This document shows, piece after piece, positions 1-22,713 of a DNA stretch of 26,575 nt (positions are counted from its first letter, which is position 1; every line of letters begins with the position of its first letter). Below the pieces are notes generated by a model. That model saw nothing but the letters and a program-made list of their open reading frames with translations. It had not been told where the DNA came from and did no database searches. A program made the translations under genes and the position numbers. Location: positions 1 through 26,575 of the forward strand of contig CAZACO010000001.1 in assembly GCA_964483185.1 (NCBI GenBank), read 5' to 3'. Origin of the DNA: an uncultured Desulfobacteraceae bacterium. Lineage in GTDB: Bacteria > Desulfobacterota > DSM-4660 > Desulfatiglandales > Desulfatiglandaceae.

Positions 1-2
1 CC

Positions 3-95
3 AACGGGGTGAAAAACATGGTTTTGAAATTTGCTTACCGGATAAACAGACTGGACGCCATCATCTCGCGACAGCACGTGCCGGTAGCCTTTTAG
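3..95 (+). CDS. rnfG: Probable C-terminal end of Rnf complex subunit G (partial, 5' truncated by window)
   Basis: Frame 3 reads NGVKNMVLKFAYRINRLDAIISRQHVPVAF-stop (TAG 93-95). 'NGVK' resembles the end of the RnfG FMN-binding helix (…SSRAVxNGVK), and the position directly upstream of rnfE fits the rnfCDGEAB order. The sequence available is very short. Confidence 0.5.
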   Translation, partial: NGVKNMVLKFAYRINRLDAIISRQHVPVAF

Positions 96-146: not shown

Positions 147-773
147 TTGCCTGCTACCACAAAAACAAATTTCCAGTTGGTCTCCAATGGCATCCTGAAC
201 GAGAATCCGATCTTTCGTCTGGCCCTTTCCATGTGCCCGGCCGTGGGAATCAGCACGACGGTCATGAATGGACTCATGTTAGGGATTGCCGTCCTCTTCG
301 TACAGGTGTTTTCAAGTTGCACAATAGCGGCCATCAAGGACTATATTCACCCCAGGATCAGGATTCCCACCTATACCCTGACGATTGCCACATGGGTGAC
401 GGTGATTGATCTGGTCCTGGCAGCATACATGCCTGCGGCCTACAAGGAGATGGGAATTTTCGTTAAGCTGATCGTGGCCTTTGCCATTATAACTATGAGA
501 TTAGAGATTTTCGCATGCAAAAACACGGTGTCCGCCTCTTTCTGGGATGGCATCGGCATGGGTCTGGGGTTTATGTTCGGCATGATGGCGCTCGGTTTTG
601 TAAGAGAATTATTGGGAATGGGGACGATTTTAGGGCACGACGTTTTAGGATTCCGGCCGCTCCTTTTCTTTGTCCTCCCGGCAGCCGGATTCTTCTGCGT
701 AGGCATTATGATGGCGTTGTTCAACTATATGGAGATTCTTTATAACCGGAAGAAAAGGGCCGAAGAGATATGA
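147..773 (+). CDS. rnfE: Rnf electron transport complex subunit E (divergent RsxE/RnfE)
   Basis: TTG start after an AGGA RBS. ENPIFRLALSMCP, RIRIP, GIFVKLIV…R.E.FA.KN, DGIGMGLGF and VRELLG motifs match the RnfE/NqrD family. Hydrophobic multi-TM protein whose stop overlaps the rnfA start (ATGA). Confidence 0.93.
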   Translation: MPATTKTNFQLVSNGILNENPIFRLALSMCPAVGISTTVMNGLMLGIAVLFVQVFSSCTIAAIKDYIHPRIRIPTYTLTIATWVTVIDLVLAAYMPAAYKEMGIFVKLIVAFAIITMRLEIFACKNTVSASFWDGIGMGLGFMFGMMALGFVRELLGMGTILGHDVLGFRPLLFFVLPAAGFFCVGIMMALFNYMEILYNRKKRAEEI

Positions 774-1732
774 AATTTCCCGGGCGAAGATATCTATTCC
801 CAGGCATTTTGGTTATTATCGCGATCTTCTGTATCAGCGGGTGTAAATCCGAGCACCGTTTTGTAAAGAAAACGGCCTTTAAAGAGGCCAACCAGATCGT
901 CATCGAGTTTGCCGGGCCGGTTGACGAGACCTGGGCAAAGGATCCTTCCAATTATATTGCTTGCGAAAAGCCTGACCCGGATATCAGGCTGAAGATTCAA
1001 CAGGTAACCGTCAGCGCGGACAAAAAAAACGTCACGTTGACATTTGCAGATGACCTCAATAAAAACCAGCCGCATGGGGTGACGGTCAACAATATTTCTT
1101 CTGAAGGGAGAGCATTGGGCACAGCCATCCTCAATGTTAAGAAGGTCTACCTCGGATATCTTTTTTCAATTCTTATCGGCGCGATGATTATCAATAACTT
1201 CGTTTTTACCAAGTATTTAGGTCTGTGTGTGTTTTTCGGGACATCTCAGAAGAAGTCCACTGCGGTGGGCATGGGGATCACATTTACCATCGTCATCATT
1301 GTCAGTGCAATGATGTCTTGGTTCCTCTACCAGTTTGTGCTACAACCTTACCGGTTGGACTTTTTGCAGATCGTTGTCTTTATCGGATTGGTTTCTTTAT
1401 CGGTTCAGGCGGTTGATACCATCTTAAGGAAGGTCAACCCGCTTCTGTTCAAGGCATTCGGGGTTTACCTGGTACTGGTCATCGCAAATTGTATTATTAT
1501 TGCCGTTCCCCTGATCCTTGCGGACAATCAATATAATGCATTTGAGAGTCTTATGCTTGCCCTTGGGGCCGGGCTCGGATTTTTGATTGCCCTGTTCCTG
1601 ATGTCCTCTGTCCGTGAAAGGCTGGAATTGGCCAATGTTCCCCCTACATACCGGGGCCTCCCCATCGCTTTTGTCGTGGCTGGCCTGTTCGCGCTGGCCT
1701 TTTTGGGATTTTCGGGAATGTCTATCTTTTAG
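770..1732 (+). CDS. rnfA: Rnf subunit A with an extra ~125-aa N-terminal lipoprotein/Ig-like domain
   Basis: The C-terminal ~195 aa have the RnfA motifs NNFVFTKYLGLC, AVGMG, LQIVVFI, ANCII, GAGLGF and RERL…VP. The N-terminus has a basic n-region, a hydrophobic h-region and a lipobox ISG-C (Cys25), then a beta-rich soluble domain. Confidence 0.93.
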   Translation: MKFPGRRYLFPGILVIIAIFCISGCKSEHRFVKKTAFKEANQIVIEFAGPVDETWAKDPSNYIACEKPDPDIRLKIQQVTVSADKKNVTLTFADDLNKNQPHGVTVNNISSEGRALGTAILNVKKVYLGYLFSILIGAMIINNFVFTKYLGLCVFFGTSQKKSTAVGMGITFTIVIIVSAMMSWFLYQFVLQPYRLDFLQIVVFIGLVSLSVQAVDTILRKVNPLLFKAFGVYLVLVIANCIIIAVPLILADNQYNAFESLMLALGAGLGFLIALFLMSSVRERLELANVPPTYRGLPIAFVVAGLFALAFLGFSGMSIF

Positions 1733-1733
1733 A

Positions 1734-1925
1734 AGTGACTAAAATAAGGTAAAGTGCCTAAAATGCCTAAAGTTTGGAGTGCCTAAAATTGCAAATGCCT
1801 AAAATGAGCTGGGGTGACTAAAGTTTCGTTCGCTCAAAATCCCGGGGTTTAATAAAAGGCTGACGCCTGAATTCCTTTTTAAGTTTAGCTCACTTTAGAC
1901 ACTTTAGACACTTTAGCTCACTTAA
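1734..1925. repeat. Intergenic inverted array of ~9-11-nt units (consensus GTG[C/A/T]CTAAA[G/A]T on the left, reverse complement ACTTTAG[A/CT]CAC on the right)
   Basis: Left arm units: AGTGACTAAAAT (1734), AGTGCCTAAAATGCCTAAAGT (1753), AGTGCCTAAAAT (1778), AATGCCTAAAAT (1794), GTGACTAAAGT (1814). Right arm 1881-1925: AAGTTTAGCTCACTTTAGACACTTTAGACACTTTAGCTCACTTAA. Confidence 0.85.
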
Positions 1926-1938
1926 CCAAGGAGAATTG

Positions 1939-2805
1939 ATGGATCCAATATTGGTAAAACTGGCACTTGGCGGGTTAGCCGTATTGGGGTGCATTGGCCT
2001 GTTTTTTGGTATCGGTCTCGCCCTTGCCGCACACAAGTTTGCCGTGGAGGCCAATCCCAAGGTCGAGGAGGTATTGGAGGTTTTGGCAGGGGCCCAGTGA
2101 GGGGGATGCGGCTTCCCAGGGTGTGAAGCGTATGCCGAAGCGGTGGTGACTGCTCCCGATGTTCCCCCCAACCTCTGCTTCCCCGGCAAGGCGGAAGTAG
2201 CCAAAATGGTTGCAGAGATAACGGGCAAAAAAATGGCCGCTGTAGAAGATGTGGTAGCGACTGTCCGCTGTTCAAGAATCGAGGGAAAGGTCAAAAAGAA
2301 GCTGAACTATATCGGCTATGGGTCATGTACCGCTGCGACATTAGCCTTTGGGGGCCCATCTTCATGCCGGTACGCGTGCGTGGGCTTAGGTGAATGCGCT
2401 GAAGACTGCCCTTTTGACGCCATCGACATGGTGGACGGTTTTCCGGTTGTTGATTCAGCCCTCTGCGTTGGCTGCGGGACCTGTGTCCGCGTCTGCCCAA
2501 AGGGGATTATCGAATTGATCCCCTTGAAGGCCAGGGTCTGGGTCCCGTGCAGCACCAGAGATCCGGGCAAGGCCGTAAAACAGACCTGCGAGGTGGGTTG
2601 CATCTCGTGCAAAATGTGCGTCAAGACGTGCCCCGCAGAGGCAGTTACATTGGAGGACGGCATTGTCAGGATCGATCACCGGAAGTGTATGGAATTCGGT
2701 CCTGAGTGCGGTGAGATATGTATTGAGAAGTGCCCCAGGGGTATCTTCAGAAGCTATTCAGGGAGCCAAAAGTCAGTCCAACAGACAACCATGGCGGCGG
2801 CCTGA
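1939..2805 (+). CDS. rnfB: Rnf subunit B (polyferredoxin), probable selenoprotein (UGA = Sec54), 288 aa
   Basis: ATG 1939 follows AAGGAG. The frame reads MDPILVKLALGGLAVLGCIGLFFGIGLALAAHKFAVEANPKVEEVLEVLAGAQ-TGA(2098-2100)-GGCGFPGCEAYAEAV…PNLC and continues in frame into the 2143..2805 ORF with multiple CxxCxxCxxxCP motifs. The TGA sits at the first Cys of the RnfB 'N-C-G-x-C-G-x-x-G-C' motif. Confidence 0.9.
2101..2136 (+). promoter_or_regulatory. Candidate bacterial SECIS hairpin directly 3' of the in-frame UGA
   Basis: Folded by eye: AUGCG(2106-2110)/CGUAU(2129-2133), bulged G2111, CUUC(2112-2115)/GAAG(2125-2128), and a G-rich apical loop CCAGGGUGU starting about 15 nt after the UGA. Not computed. 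Confidence 0.6.
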
Positions 2806-2822
2806 GGAAATGGAGGAAAATA

Positions 2823-3896
2823 ATGGAAAGAAATGGACGATTACATCATACATCGGGAATTATGAGTCGAAGGTCTTTTCTGAAGCTTTCGGGAATTCTC
2901 GGTATCGGTTTTGTCTCTGCTACAGTCATCCCCACCCGGGCGGAGGCCGTGAGGTTTAACAGCAGGCTCTACAAGATCTCCAAGACCCGGTTGGCCATGG
3001 GAACGTTTGTCTCCATGACACTCCTTCACGAATCGAAGGACCAGGCCCAAGAGGCGATGGGAGAGGCCTTTCTTGAAATCGACCGGCTGGCGCGGACCAT
3101 CAGCCGTTTTGATGAGACAACGGCCGTTGCGCAGCTCAACCGGGAGGGGTATCTGAAAGATATTCCCCCTGAGGTGGGAGAGGTGGTTGCCAGGTCGTTA
3201 GCGTACTACCGAATCAGCAACGGGGCCTTTGATATATCTGTCAAACCGGTCGTCGACCTGTTCAAAGAAAAGTTTTCCAAGGGTAAAAAAATGCCGCCCA
3301 CTGAAGCAGAGCTGAGGGAGGCGCTCAGGCTGGTCAATGCGTCCGATATCGAATTTGGGAGACGCGACGTCCGTTTCAAGCGTCCGGGTATGGGGATTAC
3401 ATTAGATGGCATTGCAAAGGGATATATTGTGGACAGGGCCTCCGGGGTCCTTGCCGGGCACCGGATAACGAATCACCTGATCAATGCCGGTGGTGACATC
3501 CGTACAATGGGCCACCGCCTTGACAAGAAGCCATGGACCATTGCGGTTCAGGATCCTCAGAAAGAGAAACATTATCCCGGCATTATTCATCTGACGGACG
3601 GGGCGGTTGCCACGTCAGGTAACTATGAGATCTATTTTGACCGGGAAAAGATGTTTCATCATATCGTGAACCCCCATACCGGGTTATCTCCCGAAGAGAG
3701 CACGAGCGTGTCGGTCTTGGCAGACACGGCCATGGAGGCAGATGCCCTCTCTACGAGTGTATTTGTCATGGCGCCCGAGCACGGCACACGCTTTATTAAC
3801 TCGCTTCCCAGATGTGAATCTCTCGTGGTAGCTAAGGGGAACATAAAGATCGAATCGGAGGGATGGAAAAGCGCGGCGATTTCAGGAATGAGTTGA
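2823..3896 (+). CDS. apbE: FAD:protein FMN transferase (ApbE) with a twin-arginine signal peptide
   Basis: ATG 2823 follows a GGAGG RBS, so the ORF-track start at 2730 is too far upstream. Motifs: MGT, LDGIAKGYIVD, NAGGDI, ATSGNYE, HIVNPHTG, ADALST. N-terminus SRRSFLK + hydrophobic stretch + AEA. Adjacent to rnf, whose RnfD/RnfG need covalent FMN. Confidence 0.93.
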   Translation: MERNGRLHHTSGIMSRRSFLKLSGILGIGFVSATVIPTRAEAVRFNSRLYKISKTRLAMGTFVSMTLLHESKDQAQEAMGEAFLEIDRLARTISRFDETTAVAQLNREGYLKDIPPEVGEVVARSLAYYRISNGAFDISVKPVVDLFKEKFSKGKKMPPTEAELREALRLVNASDIEFGRRDVRFKRPGMGITLDGIAKGYIVDRASGVLAGHRITNHLINAGGDIRTMGHRLDKKPWTIAVQDPQKEKHYPGIIHLTDGAVATSGNYEIYFDREKMFHHIVNPHTGLSPEESTSVSVLADTAMEADALSTSVFVMAPEHGTRFINSLPRCESLVVAKGNIKIESEGWKSAAISGMS

Positions 3897-11701: not shown

Positions 11702-12361
11702 ATGGCAGAAACTGCGATTAACACCTATAAAACGAAGACCGAACTGGTCTACGATTACCTCCGAACGAATATTTTGCAGAAACATTTTAAACCCGGGGAT
11801 AAGATCATCATCCGCGAAATTTCCAAAATGTTAAACCTCAGCGATATCCCGGTGAGGGAGGCCATCAAGAAACTGGAGACCCAGGGGTTGCTTCATGTGG
11901 TTCCCCACACCGGAGCGCGGGTGGCCGAAATCGACCGAAAGGAGATGGAGGAGATTTATATCATTCGCAGCACCCTCGAGGCCCTAGCCACGCAATTAGC
12001 CTGCCCCTATATAAAGTCGGAAGACTTCCAGAGGCTGGAGAAAATATTGGGAAAGTACGAGGATACGTTTCGCGCTGGGAAATATGAGGCTCTAAGTGAA
12101 TTGAATAAAGAATTTCATCTGGAAATCTACAGATGTTCCCCCTACAAGAGCCTCTTCAAAATGATTGTGGAAATATGGGAGCGGTCAAAGATGATCCGCC
12201 ATGCCTTTTCTCTGCCCAGTTCTTTGCGGGAGCAGTCGATGAAAGAACATCGATTGATATTGCAATTGTTGCGAAAGGGGAACGGCGAAGAGGCGGCCGA
12301 ACTCGTGCGGAAGCAGAAAATTGCCTCGTGGAAGGTAATTTCAACGCTCATGGAAGAATGA
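11702..12361 (+). CDS. GntR family transcriptional regulator (wHTH + FCD domain)
   Basis: VYDYLRTNIL…KPGDKI…SDIPVREAIKKLETQGLL…PHTGARV (GntR HTH); FCD-type C-terminus (LNKEFH…EH..I). Confidence 0.95.
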   Translation: MAETAINTYKTKTELVYDYLRTNILQKHFKPGDKIIIREISKMLNLSDIPVREAIKKLETQGLLHVVPHTGARVAEIDRKEMEEIYIIRSTLEALATQLACPYIKSEDFQRLEKILGKYEDTFRAGKYEALSELNKEFHLEIYRCSPYKSLFKMIVEIWERSKMIRHAFSLPSSLREQSMKEHRLILQLLRKGNGEEAAELVRKQKIASWKVISTLMEE

Positions 12362-12486
12362 GGTTCTTTTAAACGGCATACCCGATACGATGGTTTTTCA
12401 ATTTGGTGTGATCAAGGAAGAGGCCCAGAAAAGATTGAGAAAACCATGAATGTCAGTTGCCGAAAATACAAAACAGGAGGTGCATT

Positions 12487-13473
12487 ATGGCAAAGGGAAG
12501 AAATTGGTCAAAAAGTAAATCTTGTTTCGTTTTAGTGGCATTGCTCATGGTACTATTTTACGCCTTTCCAGGGTTCGGAGAGGAATACCCATCCCAGACC
12601 ATCAAAATCATCGTGCCATATCCCCCAGGAGGAGTTACGGATTTAATCAGCCGATCCATGGCAGATACGATGGCCAAAGTGCTGGGGCAGCCGGTAATCA
12701 TCGAGAATAAGCCGGGTGGAGGAACGACTGTGGCTTATTCCCTTGTGGCCAACTCCAAGCCCGATGGGTATACAATCGGACATCTTGCCGTGGGGACTTT
12801 GGTTGGTAATTTTTTGGCTTATGACGTTGCTTACAACCCACTGAAGAGCTTTGACTACATTGGAGAAGTTGGGATCTATGCACAATCCATCATTGTTAAA
12901 TCAGATGCCCCCTGGAAGACGTGGGATGAATTTGTTGACTACTCCAAGAAACATCCCCAGAAGATCCGTATGGGCCTTACTAACCAGGTAAGCACCAATG
13001 CCATCCCTACCAAATGGATTAATCATCGATTGGGAAATCCATGGAAAGAAGTGGCCTTTCGTGGTGACACTCCATGTATTACCGCTCTATTAGGCGGGCA
13101 TATCGATGCTTTTGCGGGGGGAGGCGCCCATAACATATTGGTGAACGACGGCCGAGCAAGAATGCTTCTGGCTTTGACGAACAATCCGATCCCTGGTCAT
13201 CCAAATGTTCCGACCTTCAAGCAGGTATACGGCAAACCCGTAGGCAACTTTGCGGGTTACATGGCTCCGGCGGGACTACCTGCCGACGTCCTCAAAAAAC
13301 TGGAAAAGGCAACGAATGAAGCGACCAAGGCTCCGGAATTCCTCAAAGTGATGGAGAAGATGTCCATGACCCCGCTGTGGCGGAACGGTGAGGAACTGAC
13401 CGAGGAGGTGAAAACCCTGCTCTCAACTCTTGAAACATTTTATAAAGATTTAGGTAAACTGAAAAAGAAGTAA
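12487..13473 (+). CDS. tctC: Tripartite tricarboxylate transporter substrate-binding protein (TctC/Bug family)
   Basis: ATG 12487 follows AGGAGG. Signal peptide, then YPSQTIKIIVPYPPGGVTD, GQPVIIENKPGGG, KPDGYT, ALLGGHID, PNVPTF, APAGLP. Confidence 0.93.
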   Translation: MAKGRNWSKSKSCFVLVALLMVLFYAFPGFGEEYPSQTIKIIVPYPPGGVTDLISRSMADTMAKVLGQPVIIENKPGGGTTVAYSLVANSKPDGYTIGHLAVGTLVGNFLAYDVAYNPLKSFDYIGEVGIYAQSIIVKSDAPWKTWDEFVDYSKKHPQKIRMGLTNQVSTNAIPTKWINHRLGNPWKEVAFRGDTPCITALLGGHIDAFAGGGAHNILVNDGRARMLLALTNNPIPGHPNVPTFKQVYGKPVGNFAGYMAPAGLPADVLKKLEKATNEATKAPEFLKVMEKMSMTPLWRNGEELTEEVKTLLSTLETFYKDLGKLKKK

Positions 13474-13551
13474 AATTTTTGGACCTGTGTGATCAGTTTA
13501 TCGCAGCCTGGAAACAACCGGATTTGAGCGCATGAGTCGTCCGGTCACACA

Positions 13552-13609
13552 CGTGAAAAGTGAAGAATGAAACGTGAAATCTCCTTTACTCATGGAGTTT
13601 CACGTTTCA
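13552..13609. repeat. Intergenic hairpin built from 7-nt units
   Basis: CGTGAAA-AGTGAAG-AATGAAA-CGTGAAA (13552-13579). TGAAACGTGAAA(T)CTCC pairs with GGAGTTTCACGTTTCA (13594-13609) around a 9-nt loop. Confidence 0.8.
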
Positions 13610-13742
13610 GAACCCAGAAGTTCAGCACACGAGGAGGATTTGTTTGGTGCATTGTCGATATCTCAGGTCTAACCGTACAGGTCCAGATTTCTGGTTCATC
13701 CAAACGAATCTTTGACCTCTCCATAGAGAAGAGGAGGGCTAG

Positions 13743-14624
13743 GTGTCCAGGAAATTACCCAGGTTTGAATATTTCCGGCCAGAGAGTTTCCAAGAGGCGA
13801 TGGAAATTTTGAAGAAGCACGAGCACAAGATCCGCCCCCTGGCTGGCGGGACGGATCTGTTCATTGCGATGAAAGAAAAGGGGGCCGCATGGGAAAACGT
13901 TTTGGATTTGAAGGGCATCCCTGACTACGATTACATTCGAGAAGTGGACGGCGGGATCGAGATCGGGGCCCTGGCCACGATCCGTTCCGTGGAAACTTCC
14001 CCCTTGATTAAAGAGAAGATTCCTCTTCTGGCCTCTGCTGCGGGAACGATTGGATCCATCCAAATTCGAAACAGGGCCACCATAGGAGGGAATCTATGCA
14101 ATGCGGCTCCCTCAGCAGATACGGCCCCAGCCCTCCTTTGCCTGAGAGCCGAAGTGGAAATCATCGAGGAAGCGGGAGTAAGAAGGATTCCCCTTGACGA
14201 ATTTTTTGTGGGTCCGGGCAAAACACTACTCCGGGAGACTGCCCTTCTGAAGAAGATTTTTGTTCCCTTTCAACCTTTGAATAGTGCCGGCATTTATTTC
14301 AAAGAAAGTCCGCGCCGGGCCATGGATTTGGCTGTGGCCGGGGTGTCCTGCCTCATGACGTTCGATTCGGCCAAAAAGAAATGCCTTGATTGCCGAATCG
14401 CTTTGGGGGCTGTGGCCCCAACCCCCATGCGGGCGAAGAATGCTGAAAAACTTATGATGAACCAACAGATAACAGAAAAGGAAATCGCCGCAGCAGGAGA
14501 AACGGCCAGTGGAGAATGCAGTCCCATCAGCGATGTAAGGGGGTCTGCACAGTTCCGTCGAGAAATGGTGAGAGTATTTGTTGAAAAAGGTTTGCGTGAG
14601 TTATGGAGTGAGGTAAGGTCTTAA
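13743..14624 (+). CDS. Xanthine dehydrogenase family FAD-binding (medium) subunit, CoxM/CutM-like
   Basis: FEYFRP, LAGGTDL, IRNRATIGGNLCNAAPSAD, FFVGPGKT, ALGAVAPTP, PISDVRGSA. No 4Fe-4S insertion. GTG start after GAGGAGG. Confidence 0.94.
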   Translation: MSRKLPRFEYFRPESFQEAMEILKKHEHKIRPLAGGTDLFIAMKEKGAAWENVLDLKGIPDYDYIREVDGGIEIGALATIRSVETSPLIKEKIPLLASAAGTIGSIQIRNRATIGGNLCNAAPSADTAPALLCLRAEVEIIEEAGVRRIPLDEFFVGPGKTLLRETALLKKIFVPFQPLNSAGIYFKESPRRAMDLAVAGVSCLMTFDSAKKKCLDCRIALGAVAPTPMRAKNAEKLMMNQQITEKEIAAAGETASGECSPISDVRGSAQFRREMVRVFVEKGLRELWSEVRS

Positions 14625-14648
14625 CCTTGTTCTCCGAGGTATGGAAGC

Positions 14649-15200
14649 ATGAAACATTCTATTAAAATGGTTGTGAATGGGGAAGATTATGAGCTTGTGG
14701 TAAACCCAAATGAACTGCTCATTGATGTCCTGAGGGATCGATTGGATTTGACGGGGACGAAGGAGGGGTGCGGAACAGGGGATTGCGGGGCCTGCACGGT
14801 CCTGGTGGACGGCAAAGCCATCAATTCCTGCCTGACCTTGGCGATCGAGATGAACGACAAGGAGATCTTCACCATAGAAGGGATGGCCCCTGGGGGAAAA
14901 CTGAATCCGATCCAAGAGGCTTTTATCGATGAAGGAGCCGTCCAGTGCGGGTTCTGCACCCCCGGAATGATCCTATCTGCTAAGGCCCTGCTACAGGAAA
15001 AGCGCCTTCCCTCAGAAGACGAGATCAAGAGGGGAATCGCGGGCAATCTCTGCCGATGTACCGGCTATAAGAAAATCATTCAGGCCATTCAAACGGCAAG
15101 CCTGCGTTTGGGAAAAGAGAGCAATGCAACTGCTGGGCAATCCCGGGAAGCATGCCTTCGATCTGCGCCCCAGCAAGGGACCTGCCTTAGTTCGGAGTAA
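14649..15200 (+). CDS. Xanthine dehydrogenase family 2x[2Fe-2S] (small) subunit, CoxS-like
   Basis: GTKEGCGTGDCGACTV…NSCL, QCGFCTPG, GNLCRCTGY. Confidence 0.95.
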   Translation: MKHSIKMVVNGEDYELVVNPNELLIDVLRDRLDLTGTKEGCGTGDCGACTVLVDGKAINSCLTLAIEMNDKEIFTIEGMAPGGKLNPIQEAFIDEGAVQCGFCTPGMILSAKALLQEKRLPSEDEIKRGIAGNLCRCTGYKKIIQAIQTASLRLGKESNATAGQSREACLRSAPQQGTCLSSE

Positions 15201-15205
15201 TTCCA

Positions 15206-17482
15206 ATGAATAATTTTCAATTTATAGGGAAAAGGATACCCGTCATTGATGCCAAGGAGAAGGTAACTGGCGAGGCCAAGTATACAGCCGATCTGAAATT
15301 TCCCCATATGCTTTACGGTAAAATTCTACGGAGCCCCCACCCCCACGCAAGAGTCCTGAATATCGATATCAGCCGCGCACAAAAGATCCCCGGAGTCAAA
15401 GCCATCGTGACCGGAGAACAGATCCCTAAGAAAAAAATAGGCGCCTTTATCGAAGATCAATATATCCTGGCCGTGGATAAAGTACGTTATATCGGAGAAG
15501 AAATCGCGGCGGTAGCGGCCATCGATGAAGAGACAGCAGAGGAAGCCTGTAATCTGATCGAAGTAGACTACGAGGTTCTCCCGGCAGTTTTTGATGTGGA
15601 AAAGGCCATCTTGCCGGATGCTCCGCGGATCCACGAGGAAGCCGTGAACAACATTGCCATGCGGCTAGATATCAATCGGGGAGATGTCAAGACAGGGTTT
15701 GAAGAATCTGATTATATCTTTGAGGAACGCTTTAGCACACCAAGTGTACATCAGGGTTATATGGAGCCCATGGCTGCGATTGCTTCGTTTGATATCCATG
15801 GCAGAATGACCCTGTGGGCTCCGGTTCAACATATCTACTTGGCCCGGGCTCATTTAGCCAAGGCCTTGAGTATGCCGGTGAGCGCCATCCGCGTCATCCA
15901 ACCTAAAGTGGGCGGCGGATTCGGTGGTAAAACTGCTGATCAGATGAGCATCCCGATTTGTTGTGTGCTGGCCAAAGCGACCCAAAAACCTGTGAAGCTT
16001 GTCTTGACCCGAAAGGAGGAGTTTATTTCAGGCAGGCCACGAGTGGCAACCGTTATTTATTTAAAGATGGGTGTAAAAAGCGACGGGACCTTCATGGCCA
16101 AGGAAGCCAGAATTTTTTCGGACAATGGAGCTTATTCAGGGAAAAGTCCCTCCATTATGACGACCACTGCAATCCGCGCTGATGCCCTTTATCAATACAA
16201 GAATGTCAAAGCCGAAGCCAACTTGGTCTATACAAACAAAGTGCCCACAGGAGGCTATCGCGGATTTGGGAATCCCCAGATGGCCTTTGCGGTTGAAAGT
16301 CTTATTGACACCATTGCCCACCAGCTTGAATTGGACCCACTCGAGATTCGTCTGAAGAATGCTGTCGAACCGGGTATGACAACAGTCCACGGATGGAAGA
16401 TCAAGAGCTGCGGCTATCGGGAGTGTATTACAAAAGCGGCGGCCGCCGCAGAATGGAACAGGTATAAAAAAGGGAAGCGTACTGCCAAGATCGGCGTAGG
16501 GATCGCCGGGGCTGCGGATGTAAGCGGGAATAAGCACTTCGGCTATGATGGTTCGAACATTCTCCTAAAAATAACCGAAGATGGAAAAGCCAGGATCATC
16601 TCTGGCGAAGGAGATATCGGCCAGGGTGGAACAACCATATTGACACAGATTGTCGCTGAGGAATTGGGGATTCCTTTGGAAGAGATAGAGGTCTCGGTGG
16701 CCGATACAGATTCAACCCTCTTTTGCTTGGGTGCCTTTGCAAGCCGTTTAACTACGCTGGCTGGCAATGCGGTAAAATTAGCAGCGGCGGATGCTAAAAG
16801 ACAGCTTTTTGATATCGCTGCAAAGGTTCTGGAAGCGAATCAGGAGGATTTATTGTGTAAAAATGGAAAAGTATTTGTGCAGGGGTCTTTAGAAAAAAAG
16901 TTGACGATAGCCGAAGTCATGCAGGCAGGACTTCTGAAATTGGGGAAATTCGGCAATATCAATATCCTGGGCCGAGGTTCTTTTGACCCGGATTCTGAAG
17001 TATGGGACCCTAAGAGCAAATATGGAAATATCGCCAGCACCTATCAATTTGCGGCCCATGTCGCGGTGGTGAAAGTATGCGAGGAAACTGGCCACATACA
17101 GATATTGGATTATGCGGCTGCGCACGATGTTGGCCGGGCCATTAACATGCTGACTTTGGAAGGTCAAATTGAAGGAGGGGTTACCCAGGGAATCGGATAT
17201 GCCCTATGGGAAAATTATTTGTTTAAAGACGGCAAGCTTCTCAATCCTAATTTTACTGACTTCAAAATCCCTCTGGCCCCGGATTTACCACCCATCAAAA
17301 ACATCATTGTCGAACCTGGGGATCCTGTAGGCCCATTTGGGGCGAAAGGCGTGGGTCAGACCCCCTTGGTTCCTGCGGCACCGGCAATTGCCAACGCTAT
17401 CTTTGATGCGGTGGGGGTAAGGATTACCGATTTACCCATCACTTCCGGTAAAATCCTGCAGGCCTTACGGGAAAGAAAATGA
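15206..17482 (+). CDS. Xanthine dehydrogenase family molybdopterin-binding (large) subunit 1
   Basis: KVTGEAKYTAD, LRSPHPHA, HQGYMEP, VGGGFGGK, GYRGFGNPQ, DIGQG, GAFASR, EGQIEGGVTQGIG, GPFGAKGVGQ. Confidence 0.95.
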   Translation: MNNFQFIGKRIPVIDAKEKVTGEAKYTADLKFPHMLYGKILRSPHPHARVLNIDISRAQKIPGVKAIVTGEQIPKKKIGAFIEDQYILAVDKVRYIGEEIAAVAAIDEETAEEACNLIEVDYEVLPAVFDVEKAILPDAPRIHEEAVNNIAMRLDINRGDVKTGFEESDYIFEERFSTPSVHQGYMEPMAAIASFDIHGRMTLWAPVQHIYLARAHLAKALSMPVSAIRVIQPKVGGGFGGKTADQMSIPICCVLAKATQKPVKLVLTRKEEFISGRPRVATVIYLKMGVKSDGTFMAKEARIFSDNGAYSGKSPSIMTTTAIRADALYQYKNVKAEANLVYTNKVPTGGYRGFGNPQMAFAVESLIDTIAHQLELDPLEIRLKNAVEPGMTTVHGWKIKSCGYRECITKAAAAAEWNRYKKGKRTAKIGVGIAGAADVSGNKHFGYDGSNILLKITEDGKARIISGEGDIGQGGTTILTQIVAEELGIPLEEIEVSVADTDSTLFCLGAFASRLTTLAGNAVKLAAADAKRQLFDIAAKVLEANQEDLLCKNGKVFVQGSLEKKLTIAEVMQAGLLKLGKFGNINILGRGSFDPDSEVWDPKSKYGNIASTYQFAAHVAVVKVCEETGHIQILDYAAAHDVGRAINMLTLEGQIEGGVTQGIGYALWENYLFKDGKLLNPNFTDFKIPLAPDLPPIKNIIVEPGDPVGPFGAKGVGQTPLVPAAPAIANAIFDAVGVRITDLPITSGKILQALRERK

Positions 17483-17545
17483 AAAACTAGGATTGGCGTT
17501 CTCCGGTTGCCCGAAAGGGTCAGACAATCTGCTGAGAGATGAGAT

Positions 17546-18001
17546 ATGAAGGAATATGACCTTTACGGTGGTCTGTTCTGGCTGCTCATGGCCATTTTTG
17601 TGAGCGTCATGGGGGTGAAGTTTGGCCTGGGGACCCTCGGATATCCCGGCCCCGGATTTTTCCCCTTTCTGGTGGGTCTAATATTGTTCTGCTTCTCTTT
17701 CGGCATCATCATTATTGCCTTTAAAGAAAAAGCCAAAGGGCCAGGGTTTACGGAATGGCCGTTTTTCGGAAAAAAGGTCTTTGCTACCCTGGCCATTCTA
17801 TTCGCCTACTCTTTTTCCCTTGAATATCTCGGATTCATTATTGGTTCATCTCTCTTAATGTTTTATCTCTTCAAGGTACCCGGGGCCCAAAAGTGGTGGC
17901 TTTCCGCGACCGCCACAGTGGTTACAATTGCCCTGGCGTACTATTTTTTCGTAGTCCTGCTGAAGGCGCAGTTACCGAAAGGGCTCTTGGATATGGGTTA
18001 G
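17546..18001 (+). CDS. tctB: Tripartite tricarboxylate transporter small membrane subunit TctB
   Basis: Four TM helices, GPGFFP motif, LEYLGF, C-terminal L..QLPKG; directly upstream of tctA. Confidence 0.88.
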   Translation: MKEYDLYGGLFWLLMAIFVSVMGVKFGLGTLGYPGPGFFPFLVGLILFCFSFGIIIIAFKEKAKGPGFTEWPFFGKKVFATLAILFAYSFSLEYLGFIIGSSLLMFYLFKVPGAQKWWLSATATVVTIALAYYFFVVLLKAQLPKGLLDMG

Positions 18002-18116
18002 GCGCCGATATAGAGGTGGTCCAATCCCGGATGGCTCATCACTATAGAACCTTGAGAAAATGAAAACCGGTAACTGCCTGAAGTTGCTTGGCATTTACTT
18101 CTTTAGGGATATTAGA

Positions 18117-19655
18117 TTGGATACTTACAGCAGCATCGTTTTAGGATTAGAAATCGGGCTGTTGCCGATGAATTTACTCTTTTGTTTTATAGGGGTACTG
18201 ACTGGAACTCTAGTGGGAGTGCTTCCGGGGGTCGGACCGGTGGCGGCGATGGCCCTGCTTTTGCCCGCTACGTTCCACATAGCCCCGGCGGCTGCTATCA
18301 TCATGCTGGCCGGAATCTATTACGGGTCGATGTACGGCGGATCAACCACCTCCATCTTGGTCAATATCCCCGGGGAAGCAGGTTCCGTGATTACCTGCCT
18401 GGATGGATATCAGATGGCCCGCAAGGGGAGAGCGGGCCCCGCCTTAGGCATATCCGCCTTTGGTTCTTTCATCGCCGGAACGTTCGGGGTGTTGATCCTG
18501 ATGCTAATCGCCAATCCGATGGCGGAATTTGTATTGAAATTCGGCCCTCCTGAATATTCTGCCGTCATGGTCCTTGGCTTGAGCTTATTGATTTATCTTG
18601 CTCAGGGATCCAGAATTAAGGCGCTGGTGATGGCCTGTTTTGGTTTGATTCTCAGCTTTATCGGCATTGACGTTTTGACCGGGCAGCATCGGTTGAATTT
18701 CGGATCGATGAACTTCGCGGAAGGCGTCGGGTTGGTCCCCGTGATTATGGGAGTCTTCGGCATCTCCGAAGTATTGATCAACATGGAACAGATGACGAAG
18801 CAGGAGATCTATGAGACGAAAATCCGCGGGCTTTTCCCATCATTGAACGACTGGGCGAGGTCGAAATGGCCGATCATTCGTGGTTCGGTCCTGGGTTTCA
18901 TTCTGGGGGTTCTCCCCGGAGGCGGGCCAACCCTGGCGGCCTTTGCGAGTTACGCCCTGGAAAAAAAGATATCCAAGCACCCGGAAACATTTGGAACCGG
19001 TGCCATTGAGGGAGTCGCAGGACCCGAGTCTGCCAACAATTCCGCCACGTCAGGAGGTTTTATTCCCTTGTTTCTCATCGGGATTCCCACCAATGGGATT
19101 CTGGCAATGCTTTTCAGCGCCCTTCTGATTCACGGCCTTCAGCCTGGACCGTTATTGCTGCAGCAGAACCCCGAGGTCTTTTGGGGAGTAGTGATGAGCA
19201 TGTATATCGGGAACGTGATGCTTCTCGTATTAAACCTGCCTTTGATCGGAGTCTGGATAAAAATATTGAAGATACCCTATCCGATTCTATTTCCCCTGAT
19301 CATATTCTTTTGCTTAATCGGCTCCTACAGCATTAACAACAACGCATTGGACGTAATCGTCATGTTGATTTTTGGCTTGATCGGTTATGTCATGAGAAAG
19401 TTCGGTTACGAGGGTGCCCCGCTGATTCTGGCCCTTATTCTGGGTCCGATGCTGGAGCGGTCCTTCATTCAATCCCTGAACATGTCTGGGGGGACCTATC
19501 AGATATTCTTCGGGAGCGTCATTTCCGCCGTAACGATGATCATTGCATTGGGCGTGATCTTTTCCTCGTTAATCCCGCTTTTACGAAAGAGAAGTCCAGT
19601 AACCGAGAGTTTTTCGAAGAAATGCTCAGAGGACCGTGTTACTGTTGAGGACTAG
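18117..19655 (+). CDS. tctA: Tripartite tricarboxylate transporter large membrane subunit TctA
   Basis: GTLVGVLPGVG, YYGSMYGGS, NIPGE, DGYQMARKG, GPESANN, GIPT, GLQPGP. The likely start is TTG 18117 (MDTYSS…); the ORF track uses 18060. Confidence 0.95.
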   Translation: MDTYSSIVLGLEIGLLPMNLLFCFIGVLTGTLVGVLPGVGPVAAMALLLPATFHIAPAAAIIMLAGIYYGSMYGGSTTSILVNIPGEAGSVITCLDGYQMARKGRAGPALGISAFGSFIAGTFGVLILMLIANPMAEFVLKFGPPEYSAVMVLGLSLLIYLAQGSRIKALVMACFGLILSFIGIDVLTGQHRLNFGSMNFAEGVGLVPVIMGVFGISEVLINMEQMTKQEIYETKIRGLFPSLNDWARSKWPIIRGSVLGFILGVLPGGGPTLAAFASYALEKKISKHPETFGTGAIEGVAGPESANNSATSGGFIPLFLIGIPTNGILAMLFSALLIHGLQPGPLLLQQNPEVFWGVVMSMYIGNVMLLVLNLPLIGVWIKILKIPYPILFPLIIFFCLIGSYSINNNALDVIVMLIFGLIGYVMRKFGYEGAPLILALILGPMLERSFIQSLNMSGGTYQIFFGSVISAVTMIIALGVIFSSLIPLLRKRSPVTESFSKKCSEDRVTVED

Positions 19656-19666
19656 CTTAGGAGAGG

Positions 19667-20461
19667 ATGAACTCTATGATAATCTTGCGATACCAGTGGA
19701 AGGGGATGATCAGGTGGGGCATTCTGGAAGGGGAAGAGAAGATCTTCGCGTTGGAAGGAGATCTTTACGGCGATTTTGGAAAAGGCAAAGAAGTCTGCCG
19801 TTTGGCTGATGTCAAGCTCCTCGCCCCTGCAGAACCGACCATCATGGTAGCCTGCGGCATGAACTATCGGGCACGGTTCCTAGAAGGCGGGTTGAAGGAG
19901 GAGCCGCAGGAGCCAATCCTTTTCTTTAAGCCTGCAACAGCGGTGATCGGTTCTTTTGAAGACGTGGTTTTTCCGGCGATTGCGCGAGAAATGCGCTATG
20001 AGGGTGAGCTATGCGTGGTCATGAAGAGGCATGCCAGAAATGTATCGGAGAAAGATGCAATGCGTTATGTATTAGGATACACCTGCGGGAATGAGTTGGG
20101 GGCAATGGATCTAATGAAGAAGGACCGTTGGATGACAAGGGCCAAAGGCTTCGACACCTCCGGCCCCCTGGGTCCTTTTCTTGTCACGGATCTCAATCCT
20201 CATGGCCTGTCGATCAAGAGCCGGCTCAATGGCCAAACCAGACAAGACAGCCATACGAGCCTCATGATTTTTCGGGTGGAAAAGCTGATCAGTTATATTT
20301 CGGAGTTTATGACCCTTCGCCCCGGAGACGTCATCTGGACAGGTACCCCTGCTGGGAACAGCAATGTGAAGGTGGGGGATCTCATGGAAGTCGAGATCGA
20401 AGGAATCGGAATCCTTAGCAACAGGGTTGTTGCGTCGAGTAATTCTGGAAAAAGAGCGTGA
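19667..20461 (+). CDS. Fumarylacetoacetate hydrolase (FAH) family protein
   Basis: EPILFFKP, YEGEL, GYTCGNE, RAKGFDTSGPLGP, TLRPGDVIWTGTP, GDLMEVEIEGIGILSN. Confidence 0.92.
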   Translation: MNSMIILRYQWKGMIRWGILEGEEKIFALEGDLYGDFGKGKEVCRLADVKLLAPAEPTIMVACGMNYRARFLEGGLKEEPQEPILFFKPATAVIGSFEDVVFPAIAREMRYEGELCVVMKRHARNVSEKDAMRYVLGYTCGNELGAMDLMKKDRWMTRAKGFDTSGPLGPFLVTDLNPHGLSIKSRLNGQTRQDSHTSLMIFRVEKLISYISEFMTLRPGDVIWTGTPAGNSNVKVGDLMEVEIEGIGILSNRVVASSNSGKRA

Positions 20462-20520
20462 GGAAGAAAACTTGGTGATAAAAGGAAATGCAGTGCACAA
20501 GAAATACAAGGAGTATTTAC

Positions 20521-21309
20521 ATGGAGCAAATTACGGGAAATGTATTCTATGAGAATAGATTTCGGGGATGCAATCTTGGCCTTGTGGTCACCGATGATGG
20601 TGTTGTCCTGATCGATACCCCTGTGGATTTTGAAGTTGCCCAAGGGTGGATGGGGGAGATTGCCAAACGAGGGGAAGTTCGCTGTATCATCAATACGGAA
20701 CATCACATGGACCACTGGTTGTGCAACGGGCTCTTTGCGGGGGACATCATCGCCCATGAAGCAACCCGGGAGACCATGCTGACCATGGATCTCGATTTCA
20801 TCGCCAAGCGAACACAGATCCTCTATCTTGAGCCCCACCAAATCCCGGAGGGGTATCAACTGAAGTATCCAAACATGACCTACCACGGGAGGATGACACT
20901 CTATTTTGGGAAACACACCTTTCATCTCATTCATACTCCTGGCCACACTCCCGGAGTCACGGCCGTTTATATTCCTGAAGAGAGGGTAGTCTTCACGGGT
21001 GATAACGTCGTCGGCGGGACCCGTACAGCCTACCACGATGCCCTGCCCGAAAAATGGATCGAGTCCCTCAAGCGGCTGCAAGACCTGGATATCCAAACAG
21101 TGCTTCCCGGCCATGGAAAGGTGTGCGATAAAGCATATTTGAAGCAGCAGGCGGAGATCGTACACGGATGGTGGCAAGGAACACAAAAAGCCAAGACCGA
21201 AGGCATCCCTTTTGACGATGAGGCGAAACGCAAAATCGATCCCTTTTTCGATTTTCGAGACACCGGGATCAGACCTACGGTGACTTTGACCGCCACATCG
21301 GCCCGATAA
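20521..21309 (+). CDS. Metallo-beta-lactamase-fold hydrolase (cyclase-like group)
   Basis: ATG 20521 follows AAGGAG. NLGLV…GVVLIDTP, INTEHHMDH, HTPGHT, FTGDN, PGHG. Confidence 0.9.
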   Translation: MEQITGNVFYENRFRGCNLGLVVTDDGVVLIDTPVDFEVAQGWMGEIAKRGEVRCIINTEHHMDHWLCNGLFAGDIIAHEATRETMLTMDLDFIAKRTQILYLEPHQIPEGYQLKYPNMTYHGRMTLYFGKHTFHLIHTPGHTPGVTAVYIPEERVVFTGDNVVGGTRTAYHDALPEKWIESLKRLQDLDIQTVLPGHGKVCDKAYLKQQAEIVHGWWQGTQKAKTEGIPFDDEAKRKIDPFFDFRDTGIRPTVTLTATSAR

Positions 21310-21353
21310 GGTCAGCCAATGATCATCAACCAGGCAAAGGAGGAGAATTGGAG

Positions 21354-22583
21354 ATGTCACAAGGTAAAGATGAAAGCCCATGGGTAGCGCCGGGGAAGTG
21401 GTCTGTCAGTCCCTACTGCTACGAGCCTGAGGTAAGAACTGATTGGCGGCTGCCCAAGGAGATTGCTATTCATGATGTTACTCTCAGAGATGGGGAGCAG
21501 ACGCCGGGGGTTGTCTTCCGAAAGGATGAAAAATTGAAAATAGCTCATGCCCTGGAGGATGCCGGCGTGCAGCGCATCGAGGGAGGCATGATTTCCACCT
21601 CCGAGGAAGATTTCGATGCAATCCGGGCCATGGTACGGGAAATCAAAAGATCCGAGGTGGCCTGCTTCTGCAGGGCACGACGCGACGACCTAGAACGGTC
21701 TCTCAAGGCCGGGGTACACCGGGTCATCATGGAGATAACCGCCCAGGATCCGATCATTAGAAAGATTTGGGGGAGCCGGGGGAAGGCGGTAGAAGAGATC
21801 ATCAAATTGGCTCAATTTGCTAAGACCAACGGTCTCAAGGTTACTTTCTTCCTCATGGAAAGCAGCCGAAGCCCACTGGATCTCCTGCGGGATTTCATTG
21901 TCCCGGTTGTTCGGGAGGGGAAGGTAGACCATGTCACGATCGTGGATACACGCGGATCAGCTTTCCCCCCCGCTTTCGCCTGGATAGTCTCCCAGGTCAA
22001 GCAATGGGTGCAGATTCCGGTTGAGGTCCATTGCCATAACAACTGGGGGCTGGCTACGGCTGCGACTCTGGCTGGAATCACGGCCGGGGCCGAGGTGGTT
22101 CACACCTGCATTAACGGGATGGGTGGCAACGCATCGCTGGATGAAATCGTTATGGGCGCCGAAGCTCTCTTGGGGGTGAAGACCGGCGTGAAGACGGAAA
22201 TGTTCCAGGAGATGTCCGCGAGGGTCAGAGAGATGTCCGGGGCCGACTGGTACAAGCCTTTTGTTGGGTCCCTGACTTCCCAGGTAGAGGTGGGCATCGC
22301 CACCCGGCAGATGTGGGATCGACGCAATGAAAAGGGGTATGGGCGGGCAGAACCGCTCAATTATGAGGTTGTTGGGGGGAAGGCGGTCGAGTTGGCGCTA
22401 GGGAAAAAGAGTGGAAGGTATTCGATGATGCTGAAGGCATGGGAGCACGGCCTGCCTCAACCTTCTGAAGAGCAGGCAACCGAAATGGTGAGTAGGGTGA
22501 AAAAGATTTCGGAAGCCGAAAAACGTCTGGTCACGGACGAGGAATTCAAGAAGATATACACCCAGGTCTGCGATGCTGGATAG
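21354..22583 (+). CDS. DRE-TIM metallolyase (HMGL-like; homocitrate/isopropylmalate synthase-like catalytic domain, no regulatory domain)
   Basis: IHDVTLRDGEQTPG, EVHCHNNWGLA.A..LAG..AGA, GMGGNA, LGKKSG. The start is ATG 21354, or TTG 21348. Confidence 0.88.
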   Translation: MSQGKDESPWVAPGKWSVSPYCYEPEVRTDWRLPKEIAIHDVTLRDGEQTPGVVFRKDEKLKIAHALEDAGVQRIEGGMISTSEEDFDAIRAMVREIKRSEVACFCRARRDDLERSLKAGVHRVIMEITAQDPIIRKIWGSRGKAVEEIIKLAQFAKTNGLKVTFFLMESSRSPLDLLRDFIVPVVREGKVDHVTIVDTRGSAFPPAFAWIVSQVKQWVQIPVEVHCHNNWGLATAATLAGITAGAEVVHTCINGMGGNASLDEIVMGAEALLGVKTGVKTEMFQEMSARVREMSGADWYKPFVGSLTSQVEVGIATRQMWDRRNEKGYGRAEPLNYEVVGGKAVELALGKKSGRYSMMLKAWEHGLPQPSEEQATEMVSRVKKISEAEKRLVTDEEFKKIYTQVCDAG

Positions 22584-22713
22584 GTTCTTTTCGTGGCTTA
22601 TTGGGCATTCCCCTTTTTAGAAAATCTTCTCCAGCAGCGTATTAAGGGCTTCCCCTTGCCTGAAGGGAATTTGCCCCAGGGCGAGGACTTTTAAGAGAGG
22701 GAGGGACGAATCC

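Follow-up and report, generated by a model that had tools for sequence, protein, structure and literature searches.

The 26,575 nt stretch analysed here, referred to as the window, comes from an uncultured Desulfobacteraceae bacterium (GCA_964483185.1, contig CAZACO010000001.1) and opens within genes for Rnf, a ferredoxin (Fd):NAD+ oxidoreductase coupled to ion transport. Judging from the sequence, the window starts inside a ribF-rnfCDGEAB-apbE operon, of which it has the distal part, and this operon probably encodes a working Fd:NAD+ ion-translocating oxidoreductase of a divergent Rnf lineage, operating by the mechanism proposed below. The lineage is defined by replacement of the canonical Val-Asn-Cys (VNC) of RnfE with Ala-Phe-Ala (AFA), by the loss of prolines from RnfA, by a signal peptide and an immunoglobulin (Ig)-like domain at the front of RnfA, and by an RnfG that is approximately 100 residues longer than usual. 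This AFA-type Rnf is a widespread and apparently undescribed variant. The original prediction, made from the letters of the window, was of a distinct Rnf subtype marked jointly by selenocysteine (Sec) in RnfB, a Cys-less RnfE, a lipoprotein RnfA and an ApbE exported by twin-arginine translocation (Tat). An old and distinct lineage is there, but it is set apart by the AFA form of RnfE, the extended RnfA and the enlarged RnfG, whereas Sec and the lipobox are specific to a sub-branch.

Genes in the window were identified by listing and translating open reading frames, followed by Pfam, NCBIfam and PDB sequence searches. The features of rnfE and rnfA, with AF2 standing for AlphaFold2 and pLDDT for predicted local distance difference test, are:

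147..773, + strand: rnfE, 208 residues from a TTG start, AFA type (PF02508, E=2e-51)
234..236, + strand: codon of Cys30 in RnfE, the first [2Fe-2S] ligand, which is retained (LSMCPAV), aligned with the MCP Cys of 7zc6_E, 9eri_E and NqrD
480..485, + strand: codons of RnfE Phe112-Ala113, which stand in place of the canonical Asn-Cys (second [2Fe-2S] ligand) and align with 'vvNC' of 7zc6_E (C109) and 9eri_E (C108)
770..1732, + strand: rnfA, 320 residues, N-terminally extended; PF02508 matches only at residues 132-317
770..844, + strand: lipoprotein signal peptide of RnfA, read from the sequence (MKFPGRR n-region, hydrophobic core, lipobox ISGC, Cys25 at 842-844)
857..1144, + strand: predicted periplasmic Ig-like beta-sandwich domain of RnfA, residues 30-125 (seven strands in the AF2 model, block-mean pLDDT 72-85)
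1160..1729, + strand: membrane core of RnfA with both ligand Cys (Cys153 at 1226-1228, Cys241 at 1490-1492), aligned to 9eri_A, 7zc6_A and 8ahx_A

In known Rnf complexes, four Cys, one per inner half-helix, bind an intramembrane [2Fe-2S] cluster, and the membrane cofactors have been described as strictly conserved (2025 review, PMC12174285). RnfE of the window has the Rnf-Nqr six-helix membrane fold, both by the PF02508 match and in its AF2 model (template modelling score 0.70 to 9eri_E and 7zc6_E, and 0.68 to NqrD of Na+-NQR, an NADH:quinone oxidoreductase that translocates Na+). It scores 212 bits with NF009070 (cutoff 184) and, with the rnfE model TIGR01948, 172 bits, below the cutoff of 213. 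Of the two ligand Cys expected in an RnfE or NqrD, the second is Ala113 here and the Asn before it is Phe, residues 111-113 reading A-F-A where canonical proteins have V-N-C. 'Cys-less' was nevertheless too strong a description, as the protein has four Cys (30, 58, 123 and 183), including the Cys30 ligand, and lacks the second ligand Cys alone.

RnfE was compared with 1.84 billion cluster representatives, and the 150 best were aligned with the window sequence. NC was found in 130/151 aligned proteins, with N and C each 100% conserved within those 130, and FA in every AFA clade. These clades are the window's own, one that includes P0122 and P0199 (57% identity) and one that includes P0150, P0189 and P0225 (approximately 40%). 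The position two before Cys30 is Ser in all AFA clades and Gly in 98% of canonical proteins, and altogether G28S, L53Q, P68H, S61A, M45L and F83W are common to all AFA clades at positions that are near-invariant in canonical RnfE. When Cys58, Cys123 and Cys183 were checked as possible replacements for the lost ligand, none was conserved across the AFA clades; Cys58 and Cys123 are missing from other AFA branches.

The partner subunit, RnfA, was predicted to be a lipoprotein, and this was upheld. Its leader, MKFPGRRYLFPGILVIIAIFCISGC, matches the lipobox pattern [LVI][ASTG][GAS]C, 38 close homologs all have Gly24 and Cys25, and approximately 105 extra residues separate the signal from the Rnf-Nqr core, which starts at residue 131. 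The 120 best database homologs are of similar length (299-323 residues). Topology studies of Nqr and Rnf place the N-terminus of RnfA in the periplasm, so a signal peptide and domain ahead of the first transmembrane helix are topologically consistent. In Foldseek searches, the N-terminal domain matched Ig-like domains from S-layer proteins, those of SbsC and Sap (root-mean-square deviation 1.4-1.9 Å, probability 1.0; best 1.4 Å over 95 columns), and sub-threshold Pfam matches were to Big_5 (18.0 bits, cutoff 23.6) and SWM_repeat (18.1 bits, cutoff 27). A CopC-like fold was considered and set aside, as the resemblance is generic to Ig folds and weaker than the S-layer matches. E66, P70 and D71 are universal in the domain. 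No conserved Cys, heme or Fe-S motif was found in it and its His residues are not universal, and the suggestion that it provides an extra electron input or output is therefore unlikely.

In the RnfA core, the fold is retained with both ligand Cys, and C153 and C241 are invariant. The prolines beside them have been replaced, by Val in the window and as CP to CV or CI and YLP to YLV or YLM in the lineage, and the score with TIGR01943 is 192 bits, below the cutoff of 229. An exact search with the window RnfA matched no recorded contig. RnfG was examined in locus L001, which is syntenic with the window and has an RnfA 93% identical to that of the window. Its RnfG (2689-3603) is 304 residues, compared with 189-207 in solved structures, and aligns with these only at residues 155-216 and 244-282. 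Approximately 100 residues after the transmembrane helix and an insert of approximately 30 residues are without a match, and the flavin mononucleotide (FMN) site motif LTGATISS is intact.

An RnfA/E pair with one ligand gone might contain no [2Fe-2S] cluster at all, with a mononuclear iron or an empty site in its place and an electron path or function other than Fd:NAD+-coupled ion pumping. Such a loss would fit the disappearance of one of four 'strictly conserved' ligands with no conserved replacement Cys across clades, the loss of the prolines flanking the RnfA ligands, the AF2 model of RnfE, which has no helix break at AFA, and the scores of RnfE and RnfA under the TIGR01948 and TIGR01943 cutoffs. 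However, the other three ligand Cys are invariant, sequence conservation is very high across orders, and the RnfB clusters, the RnfG FMN site, RnfD, the NADH module of RnfC and ApbE are all intact. Three Cys plus one other ligand is, moreover, a known way of holding a 2Fe-2S cluster, for example in mitoNEET-type and Rieske-type proteins. Finally, the distance from RnfB to RnfG is unbridgeable without a relay in the membrane (PMC12174285). We consider loss of the cluster unlikely, and prefer a working Rnf in which the cluster is retained.

To survey the lineage, one genome per Genome Taxonomy Database (GTDB) species was scanned with the AFA peptide pattern, and the best 80 of at least 537 loci were analysed. 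AFA RnfE occurs in at least 537 species genomes from several phyla. In the best 80 loci, RnfE is 80-96% identical, and the hosts are Desulfatiglandales-like metagenome-assembled genomes (MAGs), Desulfurivibrionaceae, Desulfobulbia and Syntrophus. The host of the window is itself an uncultured Desulfatiglandales-like member of the Desulfobacterota, and its nearest loci include 'Candidatus Desulfacyla'. Every complete rnfA in the 80 loci encodes an N-terminal signal and extension, the core starting at residue 121-175 depending on the choice of start codon. Cultured carriers are Syntrophus gentianae, Desulfofustis limnaeus and Hydrosulfovibrio ferrireducens (L038), all with AFA-RnfE, an extended RnfA with a non-lipoprotein signal, a long RnfG and Cys in RnfB. 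A second AFA clade, with RnfE 57% identical, is found in MAGs of Candidatus Eisenbacteria, Acidobacteriota and Bacteroidota. Its loci L083 and L084 encode AFA-RnfE, an RnfA of 302-319 residues with a beta domain behind an ordinary signal peptide, a long RnfG and an RnfB of the Cys form. In these two loci (L083 58-13112, L084 145-13020), apbE-rnfCDGEAB lies between two 2-oxoacid:ferredoxin oxidoreductase gene sets and a small ferredoxin gene, a neighbourhood that both produces and consumes ferredoxin.

The RnfB subunit of the window carries the proposed Sec. Its features, including a candidate Sec insertion sequence (SECIS), are:

1939..2805, + strand: rnfB, 288 codons including one UGA (Sec54)
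2098..2100, + strand: UGA, predicted Sec codon for the first Cys of U-x2-C-x4-C-x17-C (membrane-proximal [4Fe-4S]), aligned with the first Cys of GANCGGCGFAGC in 7zc6_B and 9eri_B
2111..2129, + strand: candidate SECIS upper stem-loop, stem 2111-2117 / 2123-2129, loop AGGGU, base 10 nt after the UGA (+14 to +32)

The call of Sec in RnfB stood up well: the single in-frame TGA is exactly at the first Cys of the membrane-proximal [4Fe-4S] motif, in the context VLAGAQ-U-GGCGFPGCEAYAEAVV, and is followed by a hairpin like that of fdhF. As the motif is U-x2-C-x4-C-x17-C, the Sec would be one of exactly four cluster ligands. With the TGA read as Cys, RnfB scores 434 bits with NF005503 (cutoff 252) and has the N-terminal transmembrane helix, the Cx2Cx4Cx16C Fe-S domain (PF04060), with UGA at the first motif position, and the polyferredoxin part (Fer4 domains); residues 15-268 align with 7zc6_B. 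Among the species-level AFA loci, codon 54 is TGA in 40 and TGC or TGT in 34, placing the UGA where orthologs have Cys, and 38 metagenome contigs besides these also have TGA there. Genome-wide recoding of TGA can be dismissed because TGA also ends rnfE, rnfB and apbE. A Cys in the middle of the N-terminal transmembrane helix, Cys18 (window 1990-1992, in LAVLGCIGLFFG), is kept in the Desulfobacterota members examined (L001, L002, L125 and L126) and missing in the Eisenbacteria-type clade.

In Escherichia coli fdhF-type SECIS elements, a stem-loop starts approximately 10-11 nt after the UGA, lies within the coding sequence and exposes a G and a U in the apical loop. The RnfB hairpin, which directly follows the UGA, has a stem of 5-7 bp, and its loop is NGG[GA]U in 38/40 Sec loci. 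Across the 40 Sec loci, 90.5% of stem cells are paired, compared with 24-49% when the partners are slid. All five core stem pairs are present in 32/40 loci of the Sec type, compared with 1/34 of the Cys type (Fisher p = 3e-12, kinship among loci ignored), the hairpin being largely missing from distant Cys loci. Over the hairpin, Sec forms of the protein read G-F-x-G-C-E-A and distant Cys forms G-Y-P-G-C-E-G, and the hairpin constrains the RnfB protein sequence. Among the Cys members, five that branch within the Sec group or at its base still have 5-7 of the 7 stem pairs and the loop, and these look like fossil SECIS elements left after reversion from Sec to Cys. At the Rfam gathering threshold no family was detected in the window, and no tRNA, tRNA-Sec (ARAGORN) or sel gene was found within its 26.6 kb.

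The TGA could also be a genuine stop or a defect, yielding a 53-residue membrane anchor and a separate soluble polyferredoxin, or marking a decaying rnfB. Most gene callers do split rnfB, as in L001 (53- and 219-residue products), and thermodynamically the hairpin gives no significant signal. However, the TGA coincides exactly with the codon of a cluster ligand, which relatives have as Cys, and it is in frame in 78 independent sequences with the downstream protein 70-90% identical. The next start codon after it, GTG 2143, would give a product without three of the four ligands, the geometry of the hairpin fits a bacterial SECIS, and in GCA_034522175.1 the gene call runs across the TGA to give 287 residues. 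The protein database contains no full-length RnfB of >79% identity, as expected if closer entries have been split at the TGA. A true stop or decay is thus very improbable, and we read codon 54 as Sec.

A metagenome scan for TGA-RnfB with the common (Tyr-type) CG-x-CGY-x-GC-xx-YA motif returned 38 interpretable Sec-RnfB matches, and 38/38 belong to the AFA lineage. An apparent Sec-RnfB outside the lineage, L108 (OQWA01016146.1, 1-1555), was rejected as evidence: it is a palindromic, inverted assembly chimera with a composition break and breakpoint beside the TGA. It runs from canonical rnfE and rnfA into an rnfB N-terminus and then through the inversion into an RnfB-like segment, PAGR*GGCGYSGC. 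A further match, L088, was a chance one.

The order in which the traits arose was examined with a neighbour-joining tree of concatenated RnfE, RnfA and RnfB, with changes counted by the Fitch method. The Eisenbacteria-type, Desulfobulbales and Syntrophus branches are basal, and all have Cys-RnfB and a signal of the signal-peptidase-I type in RnfA, ending in AxA and without a lipobox. The lipobox branch comes next, with early Cys offshoots, followed by an all-Sec crown. At least two Sec/Cys changes and three lipobox changes are required. Sec and lipobox occur together in 38 loci, Cys without lipobox in 32, Cys with lipobox in 5, and Sec without a clear lipobox in 2. In the Sec-type loci L063, L074 and L077, the RnfA leader ends ...VLSQVCWAGLANRF and has no canonical lipobox, and thus the lipoprotein signal seems to have been lost or altered again inside the Sec branch. 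The co-occurrence test that came with the original prediction returned neither a fixed joint set of traits nor independent distribution; in this tree the traits appear nested, neither independent nor obligatorily joined. The AFA form of RnfE, extended RnfA and long RnfG would have come first and the lipobox next, with Sec arising last, with reversions, in one sub-branch. As the Eisenbacteria-type, Desulfobulbales and Syntrophus branches all have Cys-RnfB, the RnfE Cys would have been lost long before Sec arose.

This bears on the proposal that co-adaptation links Se ligation in RnfB to the loss of Cys from RnfE, the two jointly defining the subtype and re-tuning it, with reverse electron transport as one example. 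In its favour, electrons pass directly between the two centres (PMC12174285), all interpretable Sec-RnfB are in the AFA lineage (40 species loci and the 38/38 metagenome matches), and among the hosts are syntrophs whose Rnf is believed to operate in reverse. However, of the 74 AFA operons with a readable RnfB codon 54, 34 have Cys and 40 have Sec, and the RnfE motifs are identical and RnfA is extended in both groups. All basal branches and the 57%-identical second clade have Cys, and the two or more Sec/Cys switches inside the branch took place with RnfE unchanged alongside. Functional dependence and shared ancestry are inseparable here because Sec has only one or two origins, which leaves no statistical power to detect dependence. 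We judge co-adaptation to be distinctly unlikely, and favour Sec as a late addition to a lineage already defined by its membrane subunits.

The remaining features of the operon in the window are:

1..95, + strand: 3' end of rnfG, 30 codons and TAG; the translation, ...GVKNMVLKFAYRINRLDAIISRQHVPVAF, matches the C-terminus of the 304-residue L001 RnfG
1733..1935: rnfA-rnfB spacer, 203 nt, with short direct and inverted repeats, outside the functional claim
2823..3896, + strand: apbE, flavin adenine dinucleotide (FAD):protein FMN transferase, 357 residues (PF02424, E=5e-76, 263/266 profile positions)
2865..2885, + strand: twin-arginine motif of ApbE, SRRSFLK (TIGR01409, 17.4 with a cutoff of 16.7)

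The predicted gene order (G)-E-A-B-apbE is correct, with all five genes on the + strand, and an AAGGAG ribosome-binding site is 6 nt 5' of the rnfB ATG. The window itself has only the 3' end of rnfG, and the full six-subunit set was seen in the syntenic loci L001 and L002, where rnfC, rnfD and rnfG are upstream as anticipated. L001 reads ribF-rnfC-D-G-E-A-B(TGA)-apbE-dnaB, and its rnfC product, with Complex1_51K and SLBB domains, is 440 residues. The cytochrome c gene that the original prediction had also proposed looking for was not present 5' of rnfC in any of the four relatives inspected. In L002 (5869-9350; GCA_034522175.1, contig JAXHLQ010000001.1), rnfC, rnfD and rnfG are each called as two fragments with changes of frame. 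As the adjoining rnfE, rnfA, rnfB and apbE are intact, these splits look like indel errors in a long-read assembly and not biology. apbE is 3' of rnfB in all relatives with contigs that are long enough, and 5' of rnfC in the Eisenbacteria-type branch. The N-terminus of the window ApbE, SRRSFLKLSGILGIGFVSATVIPTRAEA, has the S/T-R-R-x-F-L-K motif, a hydrophobic region and an AxA site. The Tat signal is therefore real, but it is generic and does not mark a subtype, as a twin-arginine motif was found in every sampled ApbE for which the N-terminus was read.

The rnfA-rnfB spacer contains three tandem copies of CACTTTAGA, with TGCCTAAA(A/G)T-like units upstream. The two repeat sets are mutually inverted, forming 32 nt arms that are 81% complementary. 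In L001 the insert is longer and its ends are the same, pointing to a small mobile element or one resembling a repetitive extragenic palindromic (REP) sequence at this site. Spacer length in relatives is 8-501 nt and has no relation to Sec or Cys, ruling it out as a correlate of Sec. Downstream of apbE are dnaB, rplI, a DUF2232 gene and rpsR/rpsF, on the other strand. Elsewhere, the window encodes sugar-nucleotide dehydratases, an M48 peptidase and a GntR/TctCBA/xanthine-dehydrogenase-family catabolic cluster. This cluster (11702-25624) includes a GntR/FCD regulator, a TctC/TctB/TctA tripartite transporter, one xanthine-dehydrogenase-family set with FAD, 2Fe-2S and molybdenum cofactor (MoCo) subunits and a second with 2Fe-2S and MoCo subunits, an FAH-family hydrolase, a metallo-beta-lactamase-fold protein and an HMGL-like lyase; degradation of an aromatic or heterocyclic acid is a possible role. 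Evidence for expression is thin: two 151 nt contigs from one sediment metatranscriptome match rnfA at 98-99%, too little to show read-through, and the other matching runs are DNA metagenomes.

In characterized Rnf complexes, the flexible N-terminal [4Fe-4S] domain of RnfB is the direct electron donor to the [2Fe-2S] cluster of RnfA/E (PMC12174285), in agreement with the placement of these two centres side by side in the original prediction. Electrons then pass to the FMN domain of RnfG, which on the periplasmic side swings from RnfA/E to RnfD and back, and on to RnfD, RnfC and NAD+, with RnfG and RnfD flavinylated by ApbE (PMC12174285). In AFA-type Rnf, we propose that three Cys, together with a non-Cys ligand or solvent, would hold the intramembrane cluster. 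Ligation of this kind should shift the potential of the cluster and perhaps alter the redox-linked inward/outward switching. The Ig-like domain, which would be structural and without a cofactor, may combine with the enlarged RnfG to reshape the periplasmic side at which the FMN domain docks on RnfA/E, creating a new contact around that site. In one branch, the RnfA signal would have become a lipoprotein signal before the first Cys ligand of RnfB became UGA, and SelB-dependent insertion of Sec would then give a [4Fe-4S] cluster with one selenolate ligand. Sec54 would be a late, reversible and ordinary Sec/Cys exchange that fine-tunes the cluster donating to the membrane site, and not a compensation for the loss of the RnfE Cys. 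ApbE would be exported by Tat and flavinylate RnfG and RnfD as in other Rnf/Nqr systems. Membranes of S. aciditrophicus have an Fd:NAD+ oxidoreductase activity that was ascribed to Rnf and proposed by its authors to run in reverse in vivo (PMC8805022). By analogy, AFA-type Rnf may catalyse the same reaction; the Syntrophus species seen here to carry it is S. gentianae.

Several points weigh against this reading. The loci were selected by the AFA pattern, making the RnfE motifs identical in all 80 by construction, and the tree from which the order of events was read is not bootstrapped. In the AF2 model, the helix of RnfE is broken at Cys30 and runs continuously through AFA, at moderate confidence there; the AFA site could consequently have been rebuilt more deeply than by the swap of one ligand. 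Both the three-Cys ligation and the Fe-Se bond are, moreover, deduced from sequence. The hairpin follows clade as well as TGA, and no compensatory double changes were found in it among the Sec loci, because it is inside coding sequence. The minimum free energy of the 66 nt after the TGA is no better than that of shuffles (z = -0.03), and thus the evidence for a SECIS is comparative and not thermodynamic.

A bolder version can also be put forward, which we regard as possible though doubtful. AFA Rnf would then form a class of Rnf/Nqr pump with a distinct mechanism, having three Cys and a non-thiolate ligand (possibly the lineage-specific Ser28, Gln53 or His68), a changed potential and inward/outward switch, a docking module made up of the Ig-like domain and RnfG, and a Sec-[4Fe-4S] RnfB matched to the altered acceptor. 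If true, RnfB would provide the first case in nature of an Fe-S cubane in a respiratory pump that has Sec among its ligands.

That hundreds of species carry a lineage without one of the ligands challenges the 'strictly conserved' four-Cys picture of the 2025 review, in which the coupling mechanism is built on the cluster's redox state. Its carriers include key sediment sulfate reducers, sulfur-cycling Desulfobulbales and syntrophs. It also offers a natural experiment on the interdependence of cluster ligation, RnfG docking and ion coupling, one that is tractable because cultured strains carry the lineage. Sec-RnfB is likely a new selenoprotein family in which Sec replaces a ligand of the cubane instead of adjoining the cluster, and the TGA accounts for the two-fragment rnfB calls of many MAGs. 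The published list of bacterial selenoprotein families that was consulted contains an entry for RnfC and none for RnfB. We found no description in the literature searched of RnfB as a selenoprotein, nor of an RnfE without the ligand Cys (a three-Cys RnfA/E site) or of an extended RnfA, though such an absence is not proof.

Compared with the canonical RnfABCDGE complexes of Acetobacterium woodii (9ERI), Clostridium tetanomorphum (7ZC6) and Azotobacter vinelandii (8AHX), the AFA type has the same six subunits and gene order, an RnfE 39-42% and an RnfA 40-43% identical, an RnfB that aligns end to end with its cluster motifs, ApbE as an accessory, and the same expected Fd:NAD+ reaction coupled to ion transport. 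It differs in the NC to FA, G28S, L53Q and P68H changes of RnfE, in the two prolines lost from RnfA and the signal and Ig-like domain gained there, in the approximately 100 additional residues of RnfG and, in the branch that includes the window, in Sec for one RnfB [4Fe-4S] ligand. NqrD and NqrE of the Vibrio cholerae Na+-NQR (7XK3, 8A1T) form a homologous pair of inverted topology around an intramembrane [2Fe-2S] cluster. However, Nqr has all four Cys, uses NqrF and quinone in place of RnfB and RnfC, and has an NqrE without a periplasmic extension. Another variant is known from Desulfobacterota genomes, the Desulfobacula toluolica Tol2-type Rnf, which has a large RnfB and a truncated RnfC (PMC5109826). 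There the cytoplasmic input and output modules are altered, whereas in the AFA lineage it is the membrane core and periplasmic face, with RnfB (288 residues) and RnfC (440 residues) of normal size.

Interchange of Sec and Cys in redox proteins of anaerobes is known from Desulfobacterota and methanogens, where HdrA (Sec197), VhuD, MvhD, BamF and the 'RnfC' selenoprotein family of Peng 2016 have close Cys orthologs, as Sec-RnfB does. In HdrA (Sec197) and BamF (Sec19), the Sec is beside the cluster and a selenylsulfide has been proposed, whereas the Sec of RnfB would be one of the four cubane ligands. The RnfB hairpin resembles the E. coli fdhF SECIS in its distance from the UGA, its exposed G and U and its location in coding sequence, and its binding by SelB is putative. 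It differs from the fdhF element in its unrelated sequence, in having no identified bulged U and in matching no Rfam family at the gathering threshold.

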